DNA from: Centroscyllium fabricii
Taxonomy: Eukaryota
DNA: 64,000 bases
Direction: 5' to 3'
Assembly: GCA_051313645.2 (NCBI GenBank)
Contig: JBNRSN020000014.1
Location: forward strand, 32,426,001 to 32,490,000
This document shows positions 3,186 to 64,000 of this stretch, one piece after another (position 1 is the stretch's first letter; each line of letters starts with the position of its first letter). The translations under genes and the position numbers were made by a program. The notes beneath the pieces were generated by a model. It saw only the letters and a program-made list of their open reading frames with translations. It made no database searches and had not been told where the DNA came from.

Positions 3186-3355
3186 TGTCTTTTGCACTCA
3201 CGTGCTGGGCTCCACCATTATTGAGGATGGGCATATTCATGGCGCCTCCTCCTCCTGTTAGCTGTTTAATGATCCACCACCATTCACGACTGGATGTGGC
3301 AGGACTGCAGAATTTAGATCGGATCCGTTGATTGTGGGATCTCTTAGCCCTGTGG
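3186..3355 (-). mobile_element. Fragment of the second LINE family (also at 1-58 and 2909-2937), host of the CR1 and SINE insertions
   Basis: Encodes SPATSSREWWWIIKQLTGGG, the same motif as 61620-62474; the sequence is continuous across both insertions. Confidence 0.85.
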
Positions 3356-5757: not shown

Positions 5758-6115
5758 GATAGAAACATAGAAGATAGGAAGGAGCAGGAGTAGGCCATTC
5801 GGCCCTTCGAGCCTGCTCCGCCATTCGATGAGATCATGGCTGATCATCCAAACCCAGCACCCCGTCCCTGCCTTCTCCCCATATCCCGTGATCCCCCCAC
5901 CCTATCCCCGTAACCCCACATATTTAATCCCCCCTAACACTAAGGGTCAATTTATCCTGGCCAATCAACCTAACCTGCACATCTTTGGACTGTGGGAGGA
6001 AACCGGAGCACCCGGAGGAAACCCACGCAGACACGGGCAGAATGTGCAAACTCCACACAGATAGTACCCGGGTCTCCAGAGCTGTAAGGCAACCGTGCTA
6101 ACCACTATGCCACCG
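5758..6115 (-). mobile_element. V-SINE (HE1-like)
   Basis: tRNA-like head, V-domain GTGGAGTTTGCAC...GGGTTTCCTCCGGGTGCTCCGGTTTCC and CR1 tail on the minus strand. Confidence 0.85.
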
Positions 6116-7565: not shown

Positions 7566-8613
7566 TATAGGACTACAATGCAGTTTAGAAATGTTTTGAC
7601 TGGAAATCCTGTTTTACCTATTGTGTTTGGCTCTGTTAGAATGAGATTCTGCACACTGTTGTAGATTTGGTTTTTAAAGTGCATTTGAAAACTTCAAAGT
7701 ATCCAAAAGGACTGTGGAAATTACCACCTAGAAAATGAAAGTAACTGTGTCTCTATCCATGCTTCACTGAGCCGCTAATCTTCCGAGTGGATGAATGAAC
7801 ACGAACGACCCTGTTTCTCACTAAGCCACAGACTGGAGGATCCCAGGTTGAATTACTGGCCTAGTAAGTTATCTGGCCTCCTTTCTCCTCCCCTCCCCCA
7901 CACATGCACACCCCGCGGGGGAGGGATGTGGAGAAAGGCGGCAGCTAATTCACTGGGCCAATAATGTGGGGGGGGGGGGGGAATAGATACACACTATAGT
8001 GCCAACAATCAATGAATGGGCACTTTTTTTGGTACAAGGTTTTAAAAATAAATCATTCAATTCTACAGCTTATAAAATGTCAGCCTGTGACAAGATCAGA
8101 TCGTGCTCACTCCCTGCTTCTGTCCACCAGTTTCTTCTAGTGGTTGATTTATTAGGAATGTGCACTGTTTTCCTACAGTGATTAGCAGCCATCTTGAAAC
8201 CTGTGTTTAGAGCGAGCATATTGCTTTTTGATCTATTGAACAGGCACATCAGTGTCAACTGCCAGTTTATGGTTCCAGGTAGCTATGTGGAATACATGCA
8301 ACATTTTCCAAATTAAGATCAAAGGTGTGCACACTTAGTCCAGTCTAAAAATAGCTCTTGTGTAGAAAGGAATCTAGTGGCACTGGAACAAAAACAATAT
8401 ATTGCCGATGCTGCTGGCAATCTGAAACAAAACTTGTTGAAGTTGCTCAGCAAGTCAGGTGACATCTGTAGAAGAACAGACTTGATGTTTATACAGACTC
8501 TTCCTCAACTATAGTCATAGAATAATTATAGAATCCCTACAGTGCAGATAGAGGCCATTTCGGCCCATCGAGCCTGCACTGACGCACATCCCACCCTATC
8601 CCCATAACCCCAC

Positions 8614-8813
8614 TTTTTTTCATTGATGGGATGTGGGTGTTGCTGGCTGGCTAGGCCTGCATTTAGTGCCATCCCTAATTTCACTTGAGAAGATGGTGGT
8701 GAGTCGCCTTCTTGAACCGCTGCAGTCCATATGGTGTAGGTACACCCACAGTGTTGTGTAGCGGTTGTTTACAACTGAGTGGCTTGCTAGGCCATTTCAG
8801 AGGGCATTAAGAG
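8614..8813 (-). mobile_element. SINE-sized head+tail derivative of the tRNA-headed LINE, nested in a V-SINE (about 8545-8990)
   Basis: Minus strand joins ...CCACTCAGTTGTAAACAACCGCTAC (as at 61137-61161) directly to AACACTGTGGGTGTACC... (LINE 3' end, as at 63987-64000 and 58470-58580). Confidence 0.7.
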
Positions 8814-9809
8814 GATTTAATCCCCCTAACACTAAGGGTCAATTTATCCTGGCCAATCAACCTAATCTTTGGACTGTGGGAGGAAACCCACGCAGACACT
8901 GGGAGAGTGTGTGGAGTTTGCACGGTCACCTGAGGCCAGATTTGAACCCGGACCCTTAGCGCTGTGAGGCAACCGTGCTAACCACTGTCACTGCCGCCCT
9001 AGTCGTGCTGGCTTGTGACGGTGTTTGCATGCAGGGGAGTGTGTACATAAAGGCCTGACCAGTTTAAACAAAAGTTGTCCATTCTGGATACTACCTTCAT
9101 GCTTAATGTGACTGTCACTGATGTACAGGGTATTAACTATTGTCAGCTTGGCCAAGGCAAATGATTTGCCAGACCACTTAAAGACATGGTTCTTGTGACT
9201 TTTAAATTGTTCTCTGATCTTTTTAACAGATCTTGTATTGGCTACCATCTAGCGTGGTGGTTGTCTCCTGACCTTTTTTCAAGGAAAGACATGTTGACTG
9301 TGCAAGTTTATCTAAACAACTTGTTTGCCTTAAATGCAGCTGAAGACTTAAAAAACAAACTAGCAGAATAATCTTGTCCTGAGCTGTTTTGACCGGCATC
9401 TCCCAGTTAGTTGCAAAACTCATCTTTAGGATGTGACTTGCTGGAGCAGGTTGTTCCTTTACTAAATTTGGAAATGGAAAATGCCACCTACAAATTGGCA
9501 TGATGTGAGCTGAAATACGTTGATCAGGTAATCCCATTTTAAGAATGGTCTGCCTGGTGTAACCCACACAATATTGTCACTAACGTCTAGATTTTAAGCT
9601 TGTTTACTGCATAATTGCAACTTCTTGCTCCTCTCGGATCTCTACTTGAGGAAGGTAAAATGGCATAACTTGGTGAAACTAATGCTAGAATCTGAAGGAT
9701 TGGAATTGGCCTTTTCTCCTAGATTAGAGGCCCATCTTACTTACTTGCTGCATCCCTCAATCCTTTCTCCAGGAGAGTACTGTTTTCTTGGCCCCTTTAT
9801 TCCATTTGT

Positions 9810-11435
9810 TAGGCAGGATTTAGCTAACCTCGATTGGGAACGGGAACTTGCTGGGAGGGGAACGGAAGAAAAATGGAGTGTTCCTGAAGGTAGACAAATC
9901 TCCCGGGCCGGACGGGATATATCCAAGGATTCTCTGGGAAGCGAGGAACGAAATCGCAGAGCCACTGACCTCTATCTTTAGTTCCTCGCTATCCTCGGGG
10001 ATAGTCCCTGAGGACTGGAGAGAGGCGAATGTGGTTCCCATATTTAAAAAGGGGAGCAGGGACGAGCCAGGGAACTACAGACCAGTCAGCCTTACCTCGG
10101 TGGTCGGAAAGGTGATGGAAAGGGTCCTGAGGGACAGGATCTACGACCATCTAGAAAGTGGCAAATTAATCGGGAGCAGTCAGCACGGATTCGTTAAGGG
10201 CAAATCGTGCCTGACCAACCTGATAGAATTCTTTGAAGAGGTGACCAAGTGTGTGGACGAGGGAAAGGCGGTTGATGTCATATATATAGACTTCAGCAGG
10301 CGTTCGACAAGGTCCCGCACGGTCGACTCATGAAGAAAGTAAGGAGTTGCGGGGTAAACAACGAAGTAGTGGGATGGATTGAGAACTGGCTGGCTCAGGA
10401 AGCAGAGGGTAGTGGTAGAGGGCCAATACTCGGGTTGGAGACCGGTCACCAGTGGGGTGCCACAGGGGTCGGTGTTGGGGCCACTACTATTTGTAATCTT
10501 TATCAATGACTTGGAGGAGGGGACTGAGGGGTGGGTCAGCAAATTTGCAGATGACACAAAGATTGGGGGAGTAGTGGATGAGGAGGAAGGAAGTAGAAAG
10601 ATTCAGAGGGATATAGATAGGATGCAGAGCTGGGCTGAAGAATGGCAAATGGAGTTCAACACGGGGAAATGCGAGGTGATGCACTTCGGTAGGGCAAATA
10701 GGAAGAGGGAATATAGGGTCAACGGCAGGGTCCTGAGCGAAGCAGAGGAGCAGAGAGATCTGGGAGTATATGTACACAGATCATTGAAGGCTGCCACCCA
10801 GGTGGACAAGGCAGTAAAAAAGGCCTATGGTGTATTGGCCTTCATCAACAGGGGAATAGAGTTTAAGAACCGGGAGGTCATGCTACAGCTGTACAGGTCA
10901 CTGGTGAGACCACACTTGGAGTACTGTGTGCAGTTCTGGGCACCGTACTACAGGAGGGATGTGGAGGCGTTGGAGAGGGTGCAGAGGAGATTCACCAGGA
11001 TGCTGCCGGGAATGGGGGGAAAGTTGTACGAGGAGAGGTTGAGGGAGCTGGGACTCTTCTCCCTGGAACGGAGAAGGAAGAGGGGGGACTTAATAGAGAT
11101 GTTTAAGATGATGAAGGGGATCGATAGAGTAAACGTGCAGAGACTGTTTCCCCGGGTGGGAAGAACGACAACAAGAGGGCACGAGCACAAGATTCAAGGA
11201 GGAAGATTCAGAAGGGATGGCAGGGGCAAGTTCTTTACGCAGAGAGTGGTCGGGGAGTGGAATAGGCTACCATCTGAAATAGTGGATGTGGACAGTCTGG
11301 GTGCTTTTAAAAGGATGATAGATAGGTACATGGAGGGGAAGGAAGAGTAGGGGGGACAGGAAAAATCAGAGACGGACTAAGCGCGGCACTACATTGAGGG
11401 CCCAAGGGCCTGTACAGTGCTATGTTCTATGTTTC
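9810..11435 (+). mobile_element. CR1 LINE of a distinct CpG-rich subfamily, RT and 3' end, with an internal deletion
   Basis: ORFs 9848-10333 and 10379-11350 ([21 protein letters not shown]); tail CTATGTTCTATGTT. Confidence 0.92.
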
Positions 11436-38299: not shown

Positions 38300-39375
38300 A
38301 TGTTTATGGATGGGGGCGTTGCTTGCAAGGCCAGCATTTATTGCCCAGCCCTAATTTCCCTTGGGAAGGTGGCAATGAGCCGCCTTCTTGAACAGCTGCA
38401 GTCTGTATGCTGAAGGCACTCCCACAGTGCTGTTAGGTAGGGAGTTCCAGGATTTTGACTCAGCGACTATGAAGGATCGGCGATCTTCTGAGGTGGTGGT
38501 CCCAAGTGCCTGCTGCCCTCTTCCTTCTAGTTGGAAGAGGTTATGGGTTTGGGAGGTGCTGCCAAAGAAGCCTTGGCGAGTTGCTGCAGTGCATTTTGTA
38601 GATGGTGCACACTGCAGCCATGGTACGCCGGTGGTGGAGGGAGTGAATGATTAAGGTGGTGGATGGGGAGCCAATCAAGCAGACTGCTTTGTCCTGGATG
38701 GTGTCGAGCTTCTTGTGGTGGTGGGACTGCACTCATCCAGGCAAATGGAGAGTATTCCATCACACTTCTTACTTGTGCCTGGTAGATGGTGGAAAGGCTT
38801 TGGGGAGTTAGGAGGTGAGACACTTGCTGCAGAATTCACAGCCTTTAACCCGCTCTTGTTGCCTCAGTATTTAGGGCTGATGCAGTTAAGTTTCTGGTCA
38901 ATGGTGACCCCCAGGATATTGATGGTGGGGGATTTGGCGATGGTGTTGCTGTTGAATGTCAAGGTGCGGTTAGACTCTCGCTTGTGGAAGATAGTCATTG
39001 CCTGGCACTTCTGTGGCACAAATGTTGCCTGCCACTTGTCAGCCCAAGCCTGAATGTCATCCAGGTCTTGTTGCATACGGGCATGGACTGCTTCATTCCG
39101 GGAGTTGCGAATGGCACTGAACACTGTGCAGTCATCAACTAACATTGCCATTTCTGACCTTGTGTTGGAGGGAAGGCCATTCATGAAGCAGCTGAAGATG
39201 GTTGGGCCTAGGACACTGCCCTGAGGAACTCCTGCAGTGATGTCCTGGGGCTGTGATGATTGACCTTCAACCATCTTCCTTTGTGCGAGGTATGACTCCA
39301 GCCAGTGGAGAGTTTCCCCCCCCCGATTCCCATTGACTTTAGTTTTGCTAGGGCTTCTTGATGCCGCACTCGGTA
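38300..39375 (-). mobile_element. 3' part of the second LINE family
   Basis: [16 protein letters not shown]; homologous to 62990-64000. Confidence 0.85.
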
Positions 39376-44489: not shown

Positions 44490-44972
44490 ACTGTCGGAGG
44501 GGTAGTACTGAGGGAGTGCTGCACTGTCGGAGGGGCAGTACTGAGGGAGCGCTGCACTGTCGGAGGGGCAGTACTGAGGGAGCGCTGCACTGTCGGAGGG
44601 GCAGTACTGAGGGAGCGCTGCACTGTCGGAGGGGCAGTACTGAGGGAGCGCTGCACTGTCGGAGGGGCAGTACTGAGGGAGCGCTGCACTGTCGGAGGGG
44701 CAGTACTGAGGGAGCGCTGCAATGTCGGAGGGGCAGTACTGAGGGAGCGCTGCAATGTCGGAGGGGCAGGACTGAGGGAGCGCTGCACTGTCGGAGGGGC
44801 AGTACTGAGGGAGCGCTGCACTGTCGGAGGGGCAGTACTGAGGGAGCGCTGCACTGTCGGAGGGGCAGTACTGAGGGAGCGCTGCACTGTCGGAGGGGCA
44901 GTACTGAGGGAGCGCTGCAATGTCGGAGGGGCAGTACTGAGGGAGCGCTGCAATGTCAGAGGGGCAGGACTG
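44490..44972 (+). repeat. 33-bp minisatellite derived from a DeuSINE segment
   Basis: Unit CACTGTCGGAGGGGCAGTACTGAGGGAGCGCTG, about 14.5 visible copies, running into the DeuSINE body. Confidence 0.92.
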
Positions 44973-45700
44973 TTGGAGATGCCGTTTTTCAGATGAGGTG
45001 TCCCATCAGCCCTCTTAGGTGGACGTAAATGATCCCATGGCACTACTTCGAAGTAGAGCAGGAGAGCTCTCCCCGGTGTCCTGGATAATATTTATCCCTC
45101 AACCAACACCTAATACATACAGATGATCTGGTCATTATCACATTGCAGTGTGCGCAAATTGGCTGTCGCTTGTCCTACATTACAGCATTGATTATGGGCG
45201 GCACGGAGGCACAGTGGTTAGCACTGTTGCCTCACAGCACTGGAGACCCGGGTTCAAATCCAGCCTCGGGTACTATCTGTGTGGAGTTTGCACATTCTCC
45301 CCGTGTCTGCGTGGGTTTCCTCCGGGTGCTCCAGTTTCCTCCCACAATCCAAAGATGTGCGGGTTAGGTTGATTGGCCATGATAAATTGACCCTTAGTGT
45401 TAGAGGGATTAAATTGACCCTTAGTGTTAGGGGGATTGAATATGTGGGGTTACGGGGATAGGGTGGGATATGTGTCGGTGCAGGCTCGATAGGGATCGAG
45501 GGATATGGGGAGAGGGCAGGGACAGGATGCTGGGTTTGGATGATCAGCCATGATCTCATTGAATGGCGGAGCAGGCTCCAAGGGCCGAATGGCCTGCTCC
45601 TGCTCCTAGTTTCTATGTCTATGTCTATAAAAGTACTTCATTGGCTGTGAAGTGCTTTGGGACATCAAGAAGTTGTGAAAGGTGCTATATAAATGCAAAT
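44973..45700 (+). mobile_element. Deu-domain SINE (SacSINE1/AmnSINE1-like), split by a V-SINE
   Basis: GGTGGACGTAAA.GATCCCATGGCACTA...AATATTTATCCCTCAACC...; L2-like tail at 45630-45700. Confidence 0.8.
45196..45627 (+). mobile_element. Full-length V-SINE (HE1-like) with a 27-bp internal duplication
   Basis: A box GGCACAGTGG, B box GGTTCAAATCC, V-domain, CR1 tail; duplication at 45384-45437. Confidence 0.9.
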
Positions 45701-49624: not shown

Positions 49625-49868
49625 GCCTTGGCTTAGTGAGTAGTACTCTCACCTCAGAAGGTTGTTGATTCAAAACAAACTCCAGAGACCGGAGCACAAA
49701 ATCTAGGCCAACACTCCCAGTGCAGTGCTGAGGGAGTGCTGCACTGTTAGAGGTGCTGTCTTTCGGATGAGGCGTTAAACCGAGGCCCGCGTCTGCCCCC
49801 AGGTGGATGTAAAAGATCCCATGGGACCATTTCAAAGGTGTCCTGGCCAATATTTATCCCTGAACCAC
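49625..49868 (+). mobile_element. Deu-domain SINE 5' part
   Basis: tRNA-like head then GTGCTGAGGGAGTGCTGCACTGTTAGAGGTGCTGTCTTTCGGATGAG...GATCCCATGG. Confidence 0.8.
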
Positions 49869-54671: not shown

Positions 54672-55063
54672 AGGAAACATAGAAACTAGGAGCAGGAGTA
54701 GGCCATTCGGCCCTTCGAGCCTGCTCCGCCATTCAATGAGATCATGGCTGATCATCCAAACCCAGCACCCCGTCCCTGCCCTCCCCCCATATCCCTCGAT
54801 CCCTATCGCGCCTGCACCGACACATATCCCACCCTATCCCCGTAACCCCACATATTCAATCCCCCTAACACGAAGGGTCAATTTATCCTGGCCAATCAAC
54901 CTAATCCGCACATCTTTGGACTGTGGGAGGAAACCAGAGCACCCGGAGGAAATCCACGCAGACACGGGGAGAATGTGCAAACTCCACACAGATAGTACCC
55001 GAGGCCGGATTTGAACCCGGGCCCCTAGTACTGTAAGGCAACAGTGCTAACCACTATGCCACC
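54672..55063 (-). mobile_element. Full-length V-SINE
   Basis: Head GGTGGCATAGTGGTTAGCAC, B box, V-domain and CR1 tail on minus. Confidence 0.9.
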
Positions 55064-57147: not shown

Positions 57148-58030
57148 CAGACAGGAGCACACACCTGTGAGTTATACAGACCCAGACAGGAGCACACGCC
57201 TGTGAGTTAAACAGACCCAGACAGGAGCACACGCCTGTGAGTTATACAGACGCACACGCCTGTGAGTTATACAGACCCAGACAGGAGTACGTGCCTGTGA
57301 GTTATACAGACCCAGACAGGAGCACACGCCTGTGAGTTATACAGACCCAGACAGGAGTACGTGCCTGTGAGTTAAACAGACCCAGACAGGAGCACACGCC
57401 TGTGAGTTATACAGACGCACATGCCTGTGAGTTATACAGACCCAGACAGGAGCACACGCCTGTGAGTTATACAGACCCAGACAGGAGTACGTGCCTGTGA
57501 GTTATACAGACCCAGACAGGAGCACACGCCTGTGAGTTATACAGACCCAGACAGGAGTACGTGCCTGTGAGTTAAACAGACCCAGACAGGAGCACACGCC
57601 TGTGAGTTATACAGACGCACATGCCTGTGAGTTATACAGACCCAGACAGGAGCACACGCCTGTGAGTTATACAGACCCAGACAGGAGCACGTGCCTGTGA
57701 GTTATACAGACCCAGACAGGAGCACACGCCTGTGAGTTAAACAGACCCAGACAGGAGCACACGCCTGTGAGTTATACAGACCCAGACAGGAGCATGTGCC
57801 TGTGAGTTAAACAGACCCAGACAGGAGCACACGCCTGTGAGTTATACAGACCCAGACAGGAGTACGTGCCTGTGAGTTAAACAGACCCAGACAGGAGCAC
57901 GTGCCTGTGAGTTATACAGACCCAGACAGGAGCATGTGCCCGTGACTTATACAGACCCAGACAGGAGTACGTGCCTGTGAGTTATACAGACCCAGACAGG
58001 AGCACATGCCCTGACTTATACTGACCCAGG
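57148..58030. repeat. 35-bp minisatellite abutting the TRAP1 acceptor
   Basis: Unit CCTGTGAGTTATACAGACCCAGACAGGAGCACACG, about 25 copies including three 25-bp deletion variants. Confidence 0.95.
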
Positions 58031-58464
58031 CACAATGGAGGCCCAGGAGGTTAACTGAGCTGCTGCCACTCGCCCGGGTACATGCACTGACCAGCTTATT
58101 ACAGTGCCGGGCAGTGAAGGAAAGTCCTCAGTCTGACCTCCAGCCTGTAATGAGTGAGCTGATCCCAGCAGGGGGCAGCAGTGAGGGCTCTACAACTATA
58201 CTGACTAACTGCTACTCACTCTTTACTGCTGGGGAGTGCATGGTGGGATATCAGGTGAGAACAGGGCGCGGTTACGCTGCAAGGGCCTTCTCTACCCTAT
58301 TTCTCCATTCACAACAAGAACAGTGACTTGGACATGGAGCTGGAAGAATGCCAGTACAGGGTATCTGTAGCACTGTCACAACCTGTATATAGAATAACAG
58401 ATACCCTGGAGTGAGTTACAGGCTGGAATCTAATGGATGGGTTCAGGAGTTTATATATATTTTT

Positions 58465-60815
58465 ATTCTTTCTGGGGATGTGGGTGTCGCTGGCAAGGCC
58501 AGCATTTATTGTCCATCCCTAGTTGCCCTTGAGAAGGTGGTGGTGAGCCAGTCTGTGTGGTGAAGGTACTCCCACAGTGCTATTAGGGAGGGAGTTCCAG
58601 GATTTTGACCCAACGACTATGAAGGAACGGCGATATATTTCCAAATCATATGGTGTGTGACTTGGAGGGGAACTTGGAGGTGATGGCATTCCCATGCTCT
58701 TGCTGCCCTCGTTCTTCTTGGTGGTAGGGTTTGGGAGGTGCTGTCAAAGAGGCCTTGGCAAGCTGCTGCAGTGCATCGTGTAGATGGTACACACTGGAGC
58801 CACGGTGCGCCAGTGGTGGAGGGAGTGAATGTTTAAGGTGGTGGATGGGCTGCCAATCAAGCAGGCTGCTTTGTCCTGAATGGTGTTGAGCTTCTTGTGT
58901 TGTTGTTGGAGCTGCACTCATCCAGGCAAATGGAGAGTATTCCATCACACTCCTGGCATGTGCCTTGTGGATGGTGGAAAGGCTTTGGGGAGTCAGGAGG
59001 TGAGACACTCGCTGCAAAATACCCAGCCTCTGACCTGCTCTTGCTGCCACAGTATTTATGTGGCTGGTCCAGTTAAGTTTCTGGTCAATGGTGACCCCCC
59101 AGGATGTTAATGTTGGGGGATTTGGTGATGGTAATGCTGTTGAATGTCAAGGGGCGATGGTTCGTCTCTCTCTTGTTCGAGATAGTCATTGCCTGGCACT
59201 TGTGTGGCACGAGTGTTACTTGCCACTTATCAGCCCAAGTCTGAATGTCGAGCAGGTCCTGCTGCATGCAGGAATGGATTGCTTCATTATATGAGGAGTT
59301 GCGAATGGAACTGAACACTGTGCAATCAGAAACGAACATCCCCATTTCTGACCTTATGATGGAGGGAAGGTCATTGATGAAGCAGCTGAAGATGGTTGGG
59401 CCTAGGACATTGCCCTGAGGAACTCCTGCAGCGATGTCCTGGGGATGTGATGATTGACTTCTAACCACCGCAACCATCTTCCTTTGTGCGAGGTATGACT
59501 CCAGCCAGTGGAGAATTTTCCCCCCTGATTCCCAATGACTTCAGTTTTACTAGGGCTCCTTGATGCCACACTTGGTCAAATGCTGCCTTGATGTCAAGGG
59601 CAGTCACTCTCACCTCACCTCTGAAATTTAGCTCTTTCGTCTATGTTTGGACCAAGGCTGTAATGAAGTCAGGAGCTGAGTGGTCTAGGCGGAAACCAAA
59701 CTGGGCATCAGTGAGCAGGTTATTGGTGAGCAAGTGCTGCTTGATAGCACTGTTGACGACACCTTCCATCACTTTGCTGATGATTGAGAATAGACTGATG
59801 GGGTGTCAATTGGCCGGATTGCATTTGTCCTTTTTTTGTGGGCATACTTGGGCAATTTTCCACATTGTCGGGTAGATGCCAGTGTTGCAGATGTACTGGA
59901 ACAGCTTGGCTAGGAGCACGGCTAGTTCTGGAGCACAAGTCGTCAGCACGACAGCCGGGATATTGTCGGGGACCACAGCCTTTGCTGTATCCAGTGCGCT
60001 CAGCCGTTTCTTGATATCACGTGGAGTGAATCGAATTGGCTGAAGACTGGCTTCTGTGATGGTGGGGACCTCAGGAGGAGGCCGATATGGATCATCCACT
60101 AGGCACTTCTGGCTGAAGATGGTTGCAAACGCTTCAGCTTTGTCTTTTGCACTCGCGTGCTGGGCTCCACCATCATTGAGGATGGGGATATTCATGGAGC
60201 CTCCTCCTCCCATTAGTTGTTTAATGGTCCACCACCATTCACGACTGGGTGTGGCAGGACTGCAGAGCTTTGATCTGATCTGTTGATTGTGGGATCGCTT
60301 AGCCCTGTCTATAGCATGCTGCTTCCGCTTTTTAGCATGCATGTAGTCGTGTGTTGCAGCTTCCCCAGGTTGGCACCTCATTTTTAGGTACGCCTGGTGC
60401 TGCTCCTGGCATGCTCCTCCACACTCCTCATTGAACCAGGGTTGGTTCCCTGGCTTGATGGCAATGGTAGAGTGAGGGATACGCTGGGCCATGAGGTTAC
60501 AGTTTGTAGTGGAATACAATTCTGCTGTTGCTGATGGCCCACAGCGCCTCATGGATGCCCAGTTTTGAGCTGCTAGATCTGCTCTGAATCTATCCAATTT
60601 AGCACAGTTGTATTGCCACACAACACGATGAAGGATGTCCTCAGTGTGAAGACAGGACTTTGTCTCCACAATGACTGTGCGGTGGTCACTGCTACCAATG
60701 CTGTCATGGACAGATCTGCAACAGGTAGATTGGTGAGTACGAAGTTAAGTGGGTTTTTCCCCTCGTGTTGGTTCTCTCACCACATGCTGCCGGCCCAGTC
60801 TGGCAGTTATGTCCT
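58465..60815 (-). mobile_element. 5'-truncated copy of the second LINE family (CR1/L2 group)
   Basis: ORFs 59806-60669 and 59085-59477; reverse complement of 61737-63920. Confidence 0.9.
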
Positions 60816-60822
60816 TCATAAG

Positions 60823-63800
60823 GAGGCGGTGGCGTAGTGGTTATATCACTAGACTAGTAAGCCAGAGGCTCAGTCAAATGCTCTGAGGATATGGGTTCAA
60901 ATCCCACCACGACAGCTGGTGGAATTTAAATTCAATTCAATTTAATTCTGGAATTAAATGTTGGTCTTAGTAATGGCGACCATGATACCATTGTCGATTG
61001 TTGCAAAAACCCATCTAGTTCACTAATGTCCTTTAGGGAAGGAAATCTGCCGTCCTTACCTGGTCTGGCCTACATGTGACTCCAGACCCACAGCAATGTG
61101 GTTGATTCTTAATGCCCTCTGAAATGGCCTATCAAGCCACTCAGTTGTAAACAACCGCTACGAAATACAATACGAATAAAACCGGACGGACCACCCGGCA
61201 TCGACCTCAGCACCGGAAACTACAACGTCAACGGCAAACCCGGCCCTGTCGACCCTGCAAAGTCCTCCTCACAAACATCTGGGGACTTGTGCCAAAATTG
61301 GGAGAGCTGTTCCAGACTAGTCAAGCAACAGCCTGACATAGTCATACTCACAGAATCATACCTTACAGCCAATGTCCCAGACACCACCATCACCATTCCT
61401 GGGTATGTCCTGTCCCACTGGCAGGACAGACCCACCAGAGGTGGTGGCACCGTGGTATAGAGTCTGGAGGGAGTAGCCCTGGGAGTCCTCAACATTGACT
61501 CAGGACACCATGAGGTCCCATGGCATCAAGTCAAACATGGGCAAGGAAACCTCCTGCTAATTACCACCTACCGCCCTCCCTCAGCTGATGAATCAGTACT
61601 CCTCCATGTTGAACATCAATTGGAAGAAGCACTGAGAGTAGCAAGGGCACAAAATGTCCTCTGGGTGGGGGACTTCAATGTCCATCACCAAGAGTGGCTC
61701 GATAGCACCACAACTGACCGAGCTGGCCGAGTCCTAAAGGACATAGCTGCCAGACTGGGTCTGCGACAGGTGGTGAGGGAACCAACAAGAGGGAAAAACC
61801 TACTTGATCTCGTCCTCACCAATCTACCTGTTGCAGATGCATCTGTCCATGACAGCATTGGTGGAAGTGACCACCGTACAGTCCTTGTGGAGACGAAGTC
61901 CCGTCTTCATGTTGAGGATACCCTCCGCCGTGTTGTGTGGCACTACCACCGTGCTAAATGGGACAGATTTCAAACAGATCTGGCAACTCAAAACTGGGCA
62001 TCCATGAAGCGCTGTGGGCCATCAGCAGCAGCAGAATTGTATTCAACCACAATCTGTAAACTCATGGCCCAGCATATCCCTCACTCTACCATTACCATCA
62101 AGCCGGGAGATCAACCCTGGTTTAACGAAGAGTGCAGGAGAGCATGCCGGGAACATCACCAGGCATACCGAAAAATGAGGCGTCAACCTGGTGAGGCTAC
62201 AACACAGGACTACTTGCATGCCAAACAACAGAAGCAACATGCGATAGACAGAGCTAAGCGATCTCACAACCATCGGATCAAATCAGAGCTCTGCAGTCCT
62301 GCCACATCCAGTCGTGAGTGGTGGTGGACAATTAAACAGTTAACAGGAGGAGGAGGCTCCAAAAATATCCCCATCCTCAATGATGGAGGAGCCCAGCACG
62401 TGAGTGCAAAAGACAAGGCTGAAGCATTTGCAACTATCTTCAGCCAGAAATGCCGAGTGGATGATCCATCTTGACCTCCTCCTGAGGTCCCCAGCATCAC
62501 AGATGCCAGTCTTCAGCCCATTGAATTCACTCCACGTGATGTCAAGAAACGGCTGAAGACACTGGATACTGCAAAGGCTATGGGCCCTGACAACATTCCG
62601 GCAATAGTACTGAAGACTTGTGGTCCAGAACTAGCTGCGCCCCTAGCCAAGCTGTTCCAGTACAGCTACAACACTGGCATCTACCCAGCAATGTGGAAAA
62701 TTGCCCAAGTATGTCCTGTCTACAAAAAGCAGGACAAATCCGACCCGGCCAATTACCGTCCCATCAGTCTACTCTCAATGATCAGCAAAGTGATGGAAGG
62801 TGTCGTCGACAGTGCTATCAAGCAGCACTTACTCAGCAATAACCTGCTAACTGACGCCCAGTTTGGGTTCTGCCAGGGCCACTCAGCTCCTGACCTCATT
62901 ACAGCCTTGGTCCAAACATGGACAAAAGAGCTGAACTCAAGAGGTGAGGTGAGAGTGACTGCCCTTGACATCAAGGCAGCATTTGATCGAGTGTGGCATC
63001 AAGGAGCCCTGGCAAAGCTGAAGTCAATGGGAATCAAGGGGAAAACACTCCATTGGTTGGAATCACACCTAGCACAAAGGAAGTTGGCTGTGGTTGTTGG
63101 AGGTCATTCATCTCAACCACAGGACATCACTGCAGGAGTTCCTCAGGGCTGTGTCCTAGGCTCAACCATCTTCAGCTGTTTCATCAATGACCTTCCCTCC
63201 ATCATAAGGTCAGAAGTGGGGATGTTCGCTGATGATTGCACACTGTTCAGCACCATTTGAGACTCGTCAGATACTGACGCAGTCCGTGTCCATATGCAGC
63301 AAGACCTGCTCAACATTCAGATTTGGACTGACAAGTGGCAAGTAACATTCGCACCACACAAGTACCAGGCAATGACCATCTCCAACAAGCGAGACTCTAA
63401 CCATCTCCCCTTGACATTCAATGGCATTATCATTGCTGAATCCCCCACTATCAACATCCTGGGGGTTACCATTGATCGGAAACTGAACTGGACCAGCCAT
63501 ATAAATACTGTGGCTACAAGAGCAGGCCAGAGGCTAGGAATTCTGCGGCGAGTGTCTCACCTCCTGACTCCCCAAAGCCTTTCCACCATCTACAAGGCAC
63601 AAGTCAGGAGTGTGATGGAATACTCTCCACTTGCCTGGATGAGTGCAGCTCCAACAACACTCAAGAAGCTCGACACCATCCAGGACAAAGCAGGCCGCTT
63701 GATTGGCACCCCATCCACCCCCTTCAACATTCACTCCCTCCACCACCGGCGCACTGTGGCTGCAGTGTGTACCATCTACAAGATGCACTGCAGCAACTCG

Positions 63801-64000
63801 CCAAAGCTCCTTCAACAGCACCTTCCAAACCTGCAACCGCTACCACTTAGAAGGACAAGGGCAGCAGACGCATGGGAACAGCACCACCTACAAGTTCCTC
63901 TCCAAGCCACACACCATCCTGAATTGGATCTGTATGGCCGCTCCTTCACTGTCGCTGGGCCAAAATCCTGGAACTCCCTTCCTAACAACATTGTGGGTGT
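60823..64000 (+). mobile_element. LINE (CR1/L2 group) with tRNA-like 5' head followed directly by EN-RT; runs past the window end
   Basis: A box 60830-60840, B box 60894-60904; PDIVILTESYL, GDFNVHH, SDH, ALDIKAAFDRVWH, GVPQG, FADD; a few stops and frameshifts. Confidence 0.85.

Follow-up and report, generated by a model that had tools for sequence, protein, structure and literature searches.

An elasmobranch CR1-Zenon LINE with a tRNA-derived 5′ head and a sense strand depleted of T clusters

A tRNA-like head joined to a single LINE frame

Position 60822 of the window—the whole 64,000-nucleotide stretch of Centroscyllium fabricii DNA analysed here—marks the 5′ end of a LINE that runs off the window's far edge and in which head, body, leader and frame are contiguous in one physical copy. 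Its parts, with the evidence for each, are the following:

60822..60914, + strand: tRNA-derived, Thr-AGT-like head, the 5′ end of the element (boxes, ARAGORN, flanks in sequencing run X15, published consensus starts)
60915..61000, + strand: hairpin behind the B box and AT-rich variable linker with no T4 run (loose ends at 60937–61005 are diverged versions in other runs)
61001..61161, + strand: strongly conserved non-coding body, common to the LINE and its short derivatives (deepest part in all four runs)
61162..61261, + strand: A-rich joint and basic leader in the endonuclease frame, with no in-frame AUG (high depth in runs X1, X9 and X13)
61262..64000, + strand: single frame for APE endonuclease and reverse transcriptase, running off the window (open reading frames, Pfam, tblastn)

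The A box (TGGCGTAGTGG, 60830–60840, + strand), an anticodon-like loop CTAGTAA (60854–60860) and the B box (GGTTCAAATCC, 60894–60904, 53 nt beyond the A box) lie as described in the earlier note on this DNA, whose observations we could confirm in part and whose interpretation we support in part. The endonuclease start NIWG follows at 61274, 370 bp past the B box, and the leader between the tRNA-like head and the endonuclease-reverse transcriptase frame measures 350 bp; as the note had also stated, the stretch between B box and endonuclease shows neither a frame the size of ORF1 nor a poly(A) tail or duplication. An A-box pattern matched six times in the window, and a B box lay within 80 nt of only two of these matches, namely the head at 60830 and a SINE head at 55061. 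The two boxes stand at tRNA-like spacing and the element starts 7–8 nt upstream of the A box, the layout of a type-2 promoter when judged by the usual box consensus sequences.

ARAGORN in its relaxed setting (-ps80) called a tRNA-Thr(agt) at 60826–60914 and none of four other SINE heads; at default and at -ps90 it called no tRNA, Rfam gave no tRNA match to the element at E≤10, and the head alone folded no better than shuffled sequence (z −0.39). We therefore rejected a functional tRNA gene and regard the head as a promoter module of tRNA type that has decayed. Its long arm, which separates anticodon loop from B box (60849–60892), resembles a tandem anticodon-arm duplicate in SquAca consensus sequences, and the stem of this arm shows paired changes between the window copy and CarCar (both by eye). 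A bacterial promoter scan, otherwise irrelevant here, showed two hairpins.

Within the frame, Pfam recognized PF14529 (E 5.9e-15) and PF00078 (E 4.2e-30), and tblastn found it collinear with P0001 across 906 aa (41.5%). This copy is dead, with one frameshift near 61313 and stops at 61458, 62472 and 63258; what had been read as NIWGLVPKLGEL running on into PDIVILTESYL sits in two frames with the frameshift between them, and the three stops come after. Of the earlier label "autonomous SINE-headed LINE", the headed 5′ end stands as a family trait (see below), and autonomy does not apply to this copy, whose frame is not intact; only the family can have been autonomous. The 3′ end would lie about 100 bp past the window, which predicts a full length of ~3.29 kb, against 3,244–3,314 for five of the seven elasmobranch Zenon consensus sequences.

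Three further pieces of the same LINE lie in the window:

58450..60819, − strand: second, headless stretch with the 3′ end and an A-rich tail (85.8% identity over 2268 columns)
38308..39372, − strand: third, 5′-truncated copy with the 3′ end (79.8% identity)
8614..8812, − strand: 5′-truncated short derivative consisting of body end, LINE tail and A7 (self-comparison, alignment)

At 60816–60822 the head adjoins the 5′ end of the second stretch, back to back; perhaps a full-length copy landed in an older one, whose remainder would then lie past the window's end.

Other repeats are dense. A CR1-type ORF2 at 251–2925 (− strand) has a single frameshift near 1250 and lacks stops in two frames; it is young and near-intact and served as our control. 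A third LINE family at 9884–11332 (+ strand), its reverse transcriptase 35% identical to that of Zenon, is T-poor on its sense strand. SINE copies at 54674–55063 (−), 45205–45618 (+), 5762–6115 (−) and 8564–8986 (−), the last split by the short Zenon derivative, share their tail with CR1 copies; we take them to be V-domain, HE1-like SINEs. Descent of the head from these V-type SINEs found no support, given alignments of 58, 55 and 60 against shuffle maxima of 55, 52 and 56, made up mostly of the boxes. A Deu-domain-like motif with one mismatch at 49811–49824 possibly belongs to a SacSINE1-type element, though 19 of 100 shuffles yielded as many matches. Self-comparison also showed tandem arrays at 44490–44978 and 57148–58032 (periods about 66 bp and about 65–70 bp), and six N gaps fall between 44290 and 48819.

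Family membership and the regular 5′ end

We compared the element by eye with the first 400 letters of each of ten published Zenon consensus sequences (PMC13343379, Table S2), taken from a study that reports 1,003 elements (Stuart et al. 2026) and built its consensus sequences by iterative extension. All seven elasmobranch sequences, from five species of sharks and a ray, begin with the same head, body and spacer, and none of the three from hagfish and coelacanth does. The A box is present in 7/7 and an intact B box in 6/7 (the stingray sequence lacks one base of it), while the sequence between the boxes varies; the body differs from that of ScyCan_Zenon-1 at ~5 positions in ~146 nt, again by eye. 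A search with six exact B-box strings through the same paper's supplement (first 400 letters per consensus) hit three rows only, all of them shark Zenon.

Judged by this collinearity over the 5′ 400 letters and by its single APE-reverse transcriptase frame without ORF1, the LINE at 60822–64000 is an elasmobranch CR1-Zenon element. It shows no structural difference from the published CarCar_, RhiTyp_, ScyCan_ and HypSab_Zenon-1 and SquAca_Zenon-1/2/3, which share the 5′ 400 nt, a length of ~3.3 kb, the APE-reverse transcriptase frame and the lack of ORF1 (PMC13343379), and whose A-rich tail recurs on copies 2 and 3 of the window. The same source describes Zenon, found in elasmobranchs, coelacanth and hagfish, as lacking ORF1 and ending in poly(A), and reports Zenon and Rex1 to be universally without ORF1; the missing ORF1 is thus not the anomaly that the earlier note had made of it. 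The end of the 60822 copy falls outside the window; short A-rich tails close copies 2 and 3, and the derivative has an A7. Reverse transcriptase identity to the best relatives is 38–52%, and to the window's CR1 31%; no relatives were found in metagenome or viral contigs. For six of the seven elasmobranch consensus sequences, PMC13343379 gives intact copies as 0/2313, 1/1419, 3/612, 0/59, 0/396 and 1/294, and its Table S3 lists longest ORF2 lengths of 324–747 in the Zenon rows. If open reading frames were called from ATG there, intact Zenon copies would be undercounted, the frame having no in-frame AUG.

Contigs of 4 of 24 sequencing runs, from four organisms (X1, X9, X13 and X15), were aligned to 60730–61730; the three larger runs (X1, X9, X13) are probably DNA, X15 as RNA is only a guess, and contig depth cannot rank expression. 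The spacer at 61172–61239 reached a summed depth of 0.1–0.6 million in X1, X9 and X13 and the endonuclease 0.2–2.1 million. Spacer depth of the same order as that of the endonuclease argues that the joint is not confined to a single locus. In X15, the match of 21 contigs breaks off at 60822 and their flanks are unlike, so that the element's 5′ end is fixed there.

These data bear on two readings in which the head would be foreign to the LINE. A SINE might have inserted beside a truncated LINE at this locus only, a chance that the repeat-dense surroundings and the abutting second LINE copy would favour; we consider it very improbable, as no tail separates body from frame, the published consensus sequences contradict it by running collinearly through the joint, and the depth is that of a family. 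The note had named copies with another 5′ end or an ORF1 as the finding that would make this a chance neighbour; with head, body and spacer in 7/7 elasmobranch consensus sequences and a spacer at high copy in all three larger runs, its view of the head as part of the LINE has held up. Alternatively, head and body could constitute a SINE module, and only a minority of copies, chimeric ones, would have it fused to the LINE; the consensus would then have taken its head from the abundant SINE. Iterative extension permits this, because a walk outward from the shared body may end in a SINE head. In X1 and X15 the frame is covered less deeply than head and body, which indicates that short forms are abundant, and none of the listed contigs from the four runs spans head to frame; in X9 and X13 the window copy's head is mostly far thinner than the endonuclease. 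(In X15, head and body are 20–1000 times deeper than spacer and frame, a contrast that we do not use as evidence.) Against this stand the contiguous window copy, the same join in five species with species-specific heads and linkers, the match in depth between spacer and frame, and contigs that extend 42–49 letters past 61166 and 61173 in X1 and X9 (X13 differs locally there), and we hold the SINE-module origin to be improbable. The window's copy is independent physical support for the join of head and frame, and, recurring across the family, the head is where elasmobranch Zenon regularly begins rather than a chance SINE neighbour.

Depletion of T clusters and the polymerase

Vertebrate Pol III stops at runs of at least four T. 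On the sense strand of 60823–64000 (3,178 nt) there is no such run, against 14 on the antisense strand, a count that bears out the scarcity suspected earlier. Expected sense-strand numbers were 5.0 under base shuffling (P 0.006), 2.6 under dinucleotide shuffling (P 0.048), 3.0 under codon permutation (P 0.026) and 2.4 under a third-position model (P 0.074), so that the plain test is only modest in its last three forms. The 2.7-kb CR1 copy has seven such runs, and the five CR1 stretches tested are at expectation on their sense strands; the LINE at 9884–11332 has only 0–1. Among the published first 400 letters, such runs occur in 0/7 elasmobranch and 3/3 other Zenons (by eye).

Codon context proved unspecific: C before CCN is avoided like T before TTN (P 0.009 vs 0.025), and this signal is therefore not particular to T. 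After that result we chose, post hoc, to count T clusters, defined as at least four T in 5 nt. The sense strand holds 2 against 8.3 ± 2.1 expected under synonymous codon permutation (P≤0.001) and 4 against 10.0 expected under dinucleotide shuffles (P 0.005); neither C, A nor G clusters are depleted in the Zenon copy, and T clusters are not depleted in the CR1 control (18 vs 18.9), in four CR1 stretches or in the third LINE. The sense-strand depletion of terminator-like clusters is thus specific to T. The scarcity of T runs remarked on earlier holds up in stronger tests, and the depletion recurs in the headless copy 2 (3 vs 7.8, P 0.01), though not significantly in copy 3 alone (P 0.23), all three Zenon copies being related; that this depletion spans the coding region and a copy without a head also speaks against a SINE module grafted onto a few LINEs. 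Phenylalanine makes up 2.0% of the frame product; across 79 long relatives its median share is 4.6% and just one has less, and the nine closest relatives listed are Phe-poor as well (2.3–3.6%). The absence of T4+ in 3,178 nt and the cluster statistics (P 0.001–0.005) agree with the rule, applied in PMC4494074, that a Pol III element holds no internal oligo-T, and together they are a sign of moderate strength that Pol III reads through the element.

With the promoter layout, this sign leads us to consider it somewhat better than an even bet that full-length Zenon RNA is transcribed by Pol III. The head could also be a true family 5′ end while Pol II makes the full-length RNA from an internal body promoter or by read-through, the A and B boxes serving only short derivatives or acting as a TFIIIC-bound insulator. 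T-poverty would then reflect avoidance of splice or polyadenylation signals, from which a similar pattern could arise. In favour of Pol II, the literature treats LINEs as its transcripts (PMC10886601, PMC5786205), the simple T4+ tests are weak, and an ATG at the start of the leader in 6/7 consensus sequences, out of frame, could be used by a capped RNA with a frameshift. The CR1 control, presumably a Pol II element, shows no T-cluster depletion, however, and the LINE consensus retains both boxes in sharks and a ray alike, with the element starting at the tRNA +1; Pol II transcription is in our view a possible but clearly less likely account. A further point that counts against Pol III is its weak processivity, held to limit element length (Kojima 2024, PMC10886601).

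Translation, short derivatives and relation to known elements

The first in-frame methionine lies at 62004, after the endonuclease, and no in-frame AUG precedes the endonuclease. Upstream, the frame stays open through a basic leader of ~31 aa (35% K+R) like the leaders of relatives; among the 55 long relatives whose endonuclease start could be detected, gene finders called a leader of 10–70 aa beginning with Met in 46. The leader-start ATG of the 6/7 elasmobranch consensus sequences is one base out of the endonuclease frame (assessed partly by eye). A 2A peptide before the endonuclease was rejected, with none here and one in 79 long relatives, as was a structured body or ribozyme, for the body matches nothing in Rfam, ribozymes included, and folds no better than shuffles (z −0.67). 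By analogy with R2, non-AUG, cap-independent initiation helped by the conserved body would fit an uncapped RNA; this is the weakest step, because the body alone shows no fold signal. On a capped RNA, a frameshift from the out-of-frame ATG would take the place of non-AUG initiation.

Short body-plus-tail forms of this LINE exist. In the derivative at 8614–8812, the body's last 55 bp (61107–61161, 54/55 identical) are joined to the LINE's last ~144 bp; it sits inside another SINE, and no target-site duplication is visible. The earlier note had cited this piece (as 8614–8813) as a head-plus-tail derivative that ties the head to the LINE. It carries no tRNA head and hence ties the end of the body, not the head, to the tail. 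X15 contains two body-to-tail joints, one at 61162 like that of the derivative and another behind 61172; no molecule showed the head together with such a joint. Each joint apparently retains bases absent from the other, which suggests, going by loose-end summaries of X15, that deletions arose from a longer parent more than once.

A SacSINE1 or Deu-domain identity of the element was rejected, as the 14-nt Deu motif, with two mismatches allowed, matches only at 45027 and 49811 (alignment by eye), and the UCON3 and Meta domains do not match the body by eye (domain motifs from the supplement of PMC7245038). SacSINE1 and other DeuSINEs combine a tRNA head, a conserved body and a CR1/L2-type tail at similar length (463 bp, PMC2746220), but carry Deu motifs in the body that Zenon lacks. 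Lepidopteran Zenon and Persaeus, a SIDE derived from it (PMC6740152), parallel the shark element in their internally deleted 5′ plus 3′ forms with a poly(A) end; unlike it, Persaeus, which has the Zenon 5′ end, is stated to have neither tRNA homology nor a Pol III promoter. Bipartite SINEs of the Bov-tA type likewise unite a tRNA head with 5′ and 3′ LINE parts (PMC5786205, PMC4494074), yet in those a non-coding, deleted LINE acquired the head, whereas in shark Zenon the coding element itself bears it. R2 is a single-frame LINE that does not rely on a Pol II promoter of its own and for which IRES-type initiation has been suggested (PMC3414825), but a ribozyme cuts it from an rRNA co-transcript and no Rfam ribozyme was found in the Zenon element. 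The TRIMp3 retrotransposons Cassandra, Helenus and Ajax have captured a small-RNA Pol III promoter; unlike Zenon, they are short (311–1263 bp), non-coding and LTR-type (PMC10886601).

The main text of PMC13343379 contains neither "tRNA" nor "polymerase III", and head, T-cluster depletion, missing AUG and short derivatives appear to be undescribed there; the available text of the whale shark preprint (10.1101/443036) mentions Zenon once and tRNA never. The novelty thus appears to lie in a 5′ module of a known family that had gone unremarked, not in the absence of ORF1. Searches of mostly open-access literature other than Repbase Reports turned up no account of an autonomous LINE with a tRNA head. 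Ingi/Vingi elements reportedly may include small-RNA-headed members, a possible precedent.

Our preferred reading, which we consider somewhat more likely than not, begins with an ancestral elasmobranch Zenon that exchanged its 5′ end for a module resembling tRNA-Thr, probably through a template switch to the RNA of a SINE or tRNA. Starting at +1, Pol III would then read the whole frame as far as the A-rich tail, and such read-through would select against T runs. The uncapped RNA would be translated without an in-frame AUG, most likely aided by the conserved 160-nt body, and internal deletions sparing head, body and tail would give rise to SINE-like derivatives mobilized by the LINE protein. 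In its boldest form, to which we assign a probability of roughly 0.5, this reading would make elasmobranch Zenon a coding, self-mobilizing family run by Pol III since before the split of sharks and rays; its 3.3-kb uncapped RNA would be cleared of T terminators and translated by way of a conserved RNA element, and simple internal deletions would generate SINEs.

LINEs are commonly regarded as Pol II transcripts and SINEs as short Pol III transcripts (PMC10886601). If our reading is true, a vertebrate LINE in high copy number that conserves a tRNA promoter and whose coding region is depleted of T clusters would break this division of polymerases. A tRNA-type promoter is normally found only on small non-coding SINEs. 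Copying by Pol III would be very unusual for a protein-coding element, and Zenon would offer a natural case of a translated long Pol III RNA. It would also provide a direct route to the birth of SINEs, the origin of whose bodies has been called enigmatic (PMC5786205), with both head and body supplied by the partner LINE.
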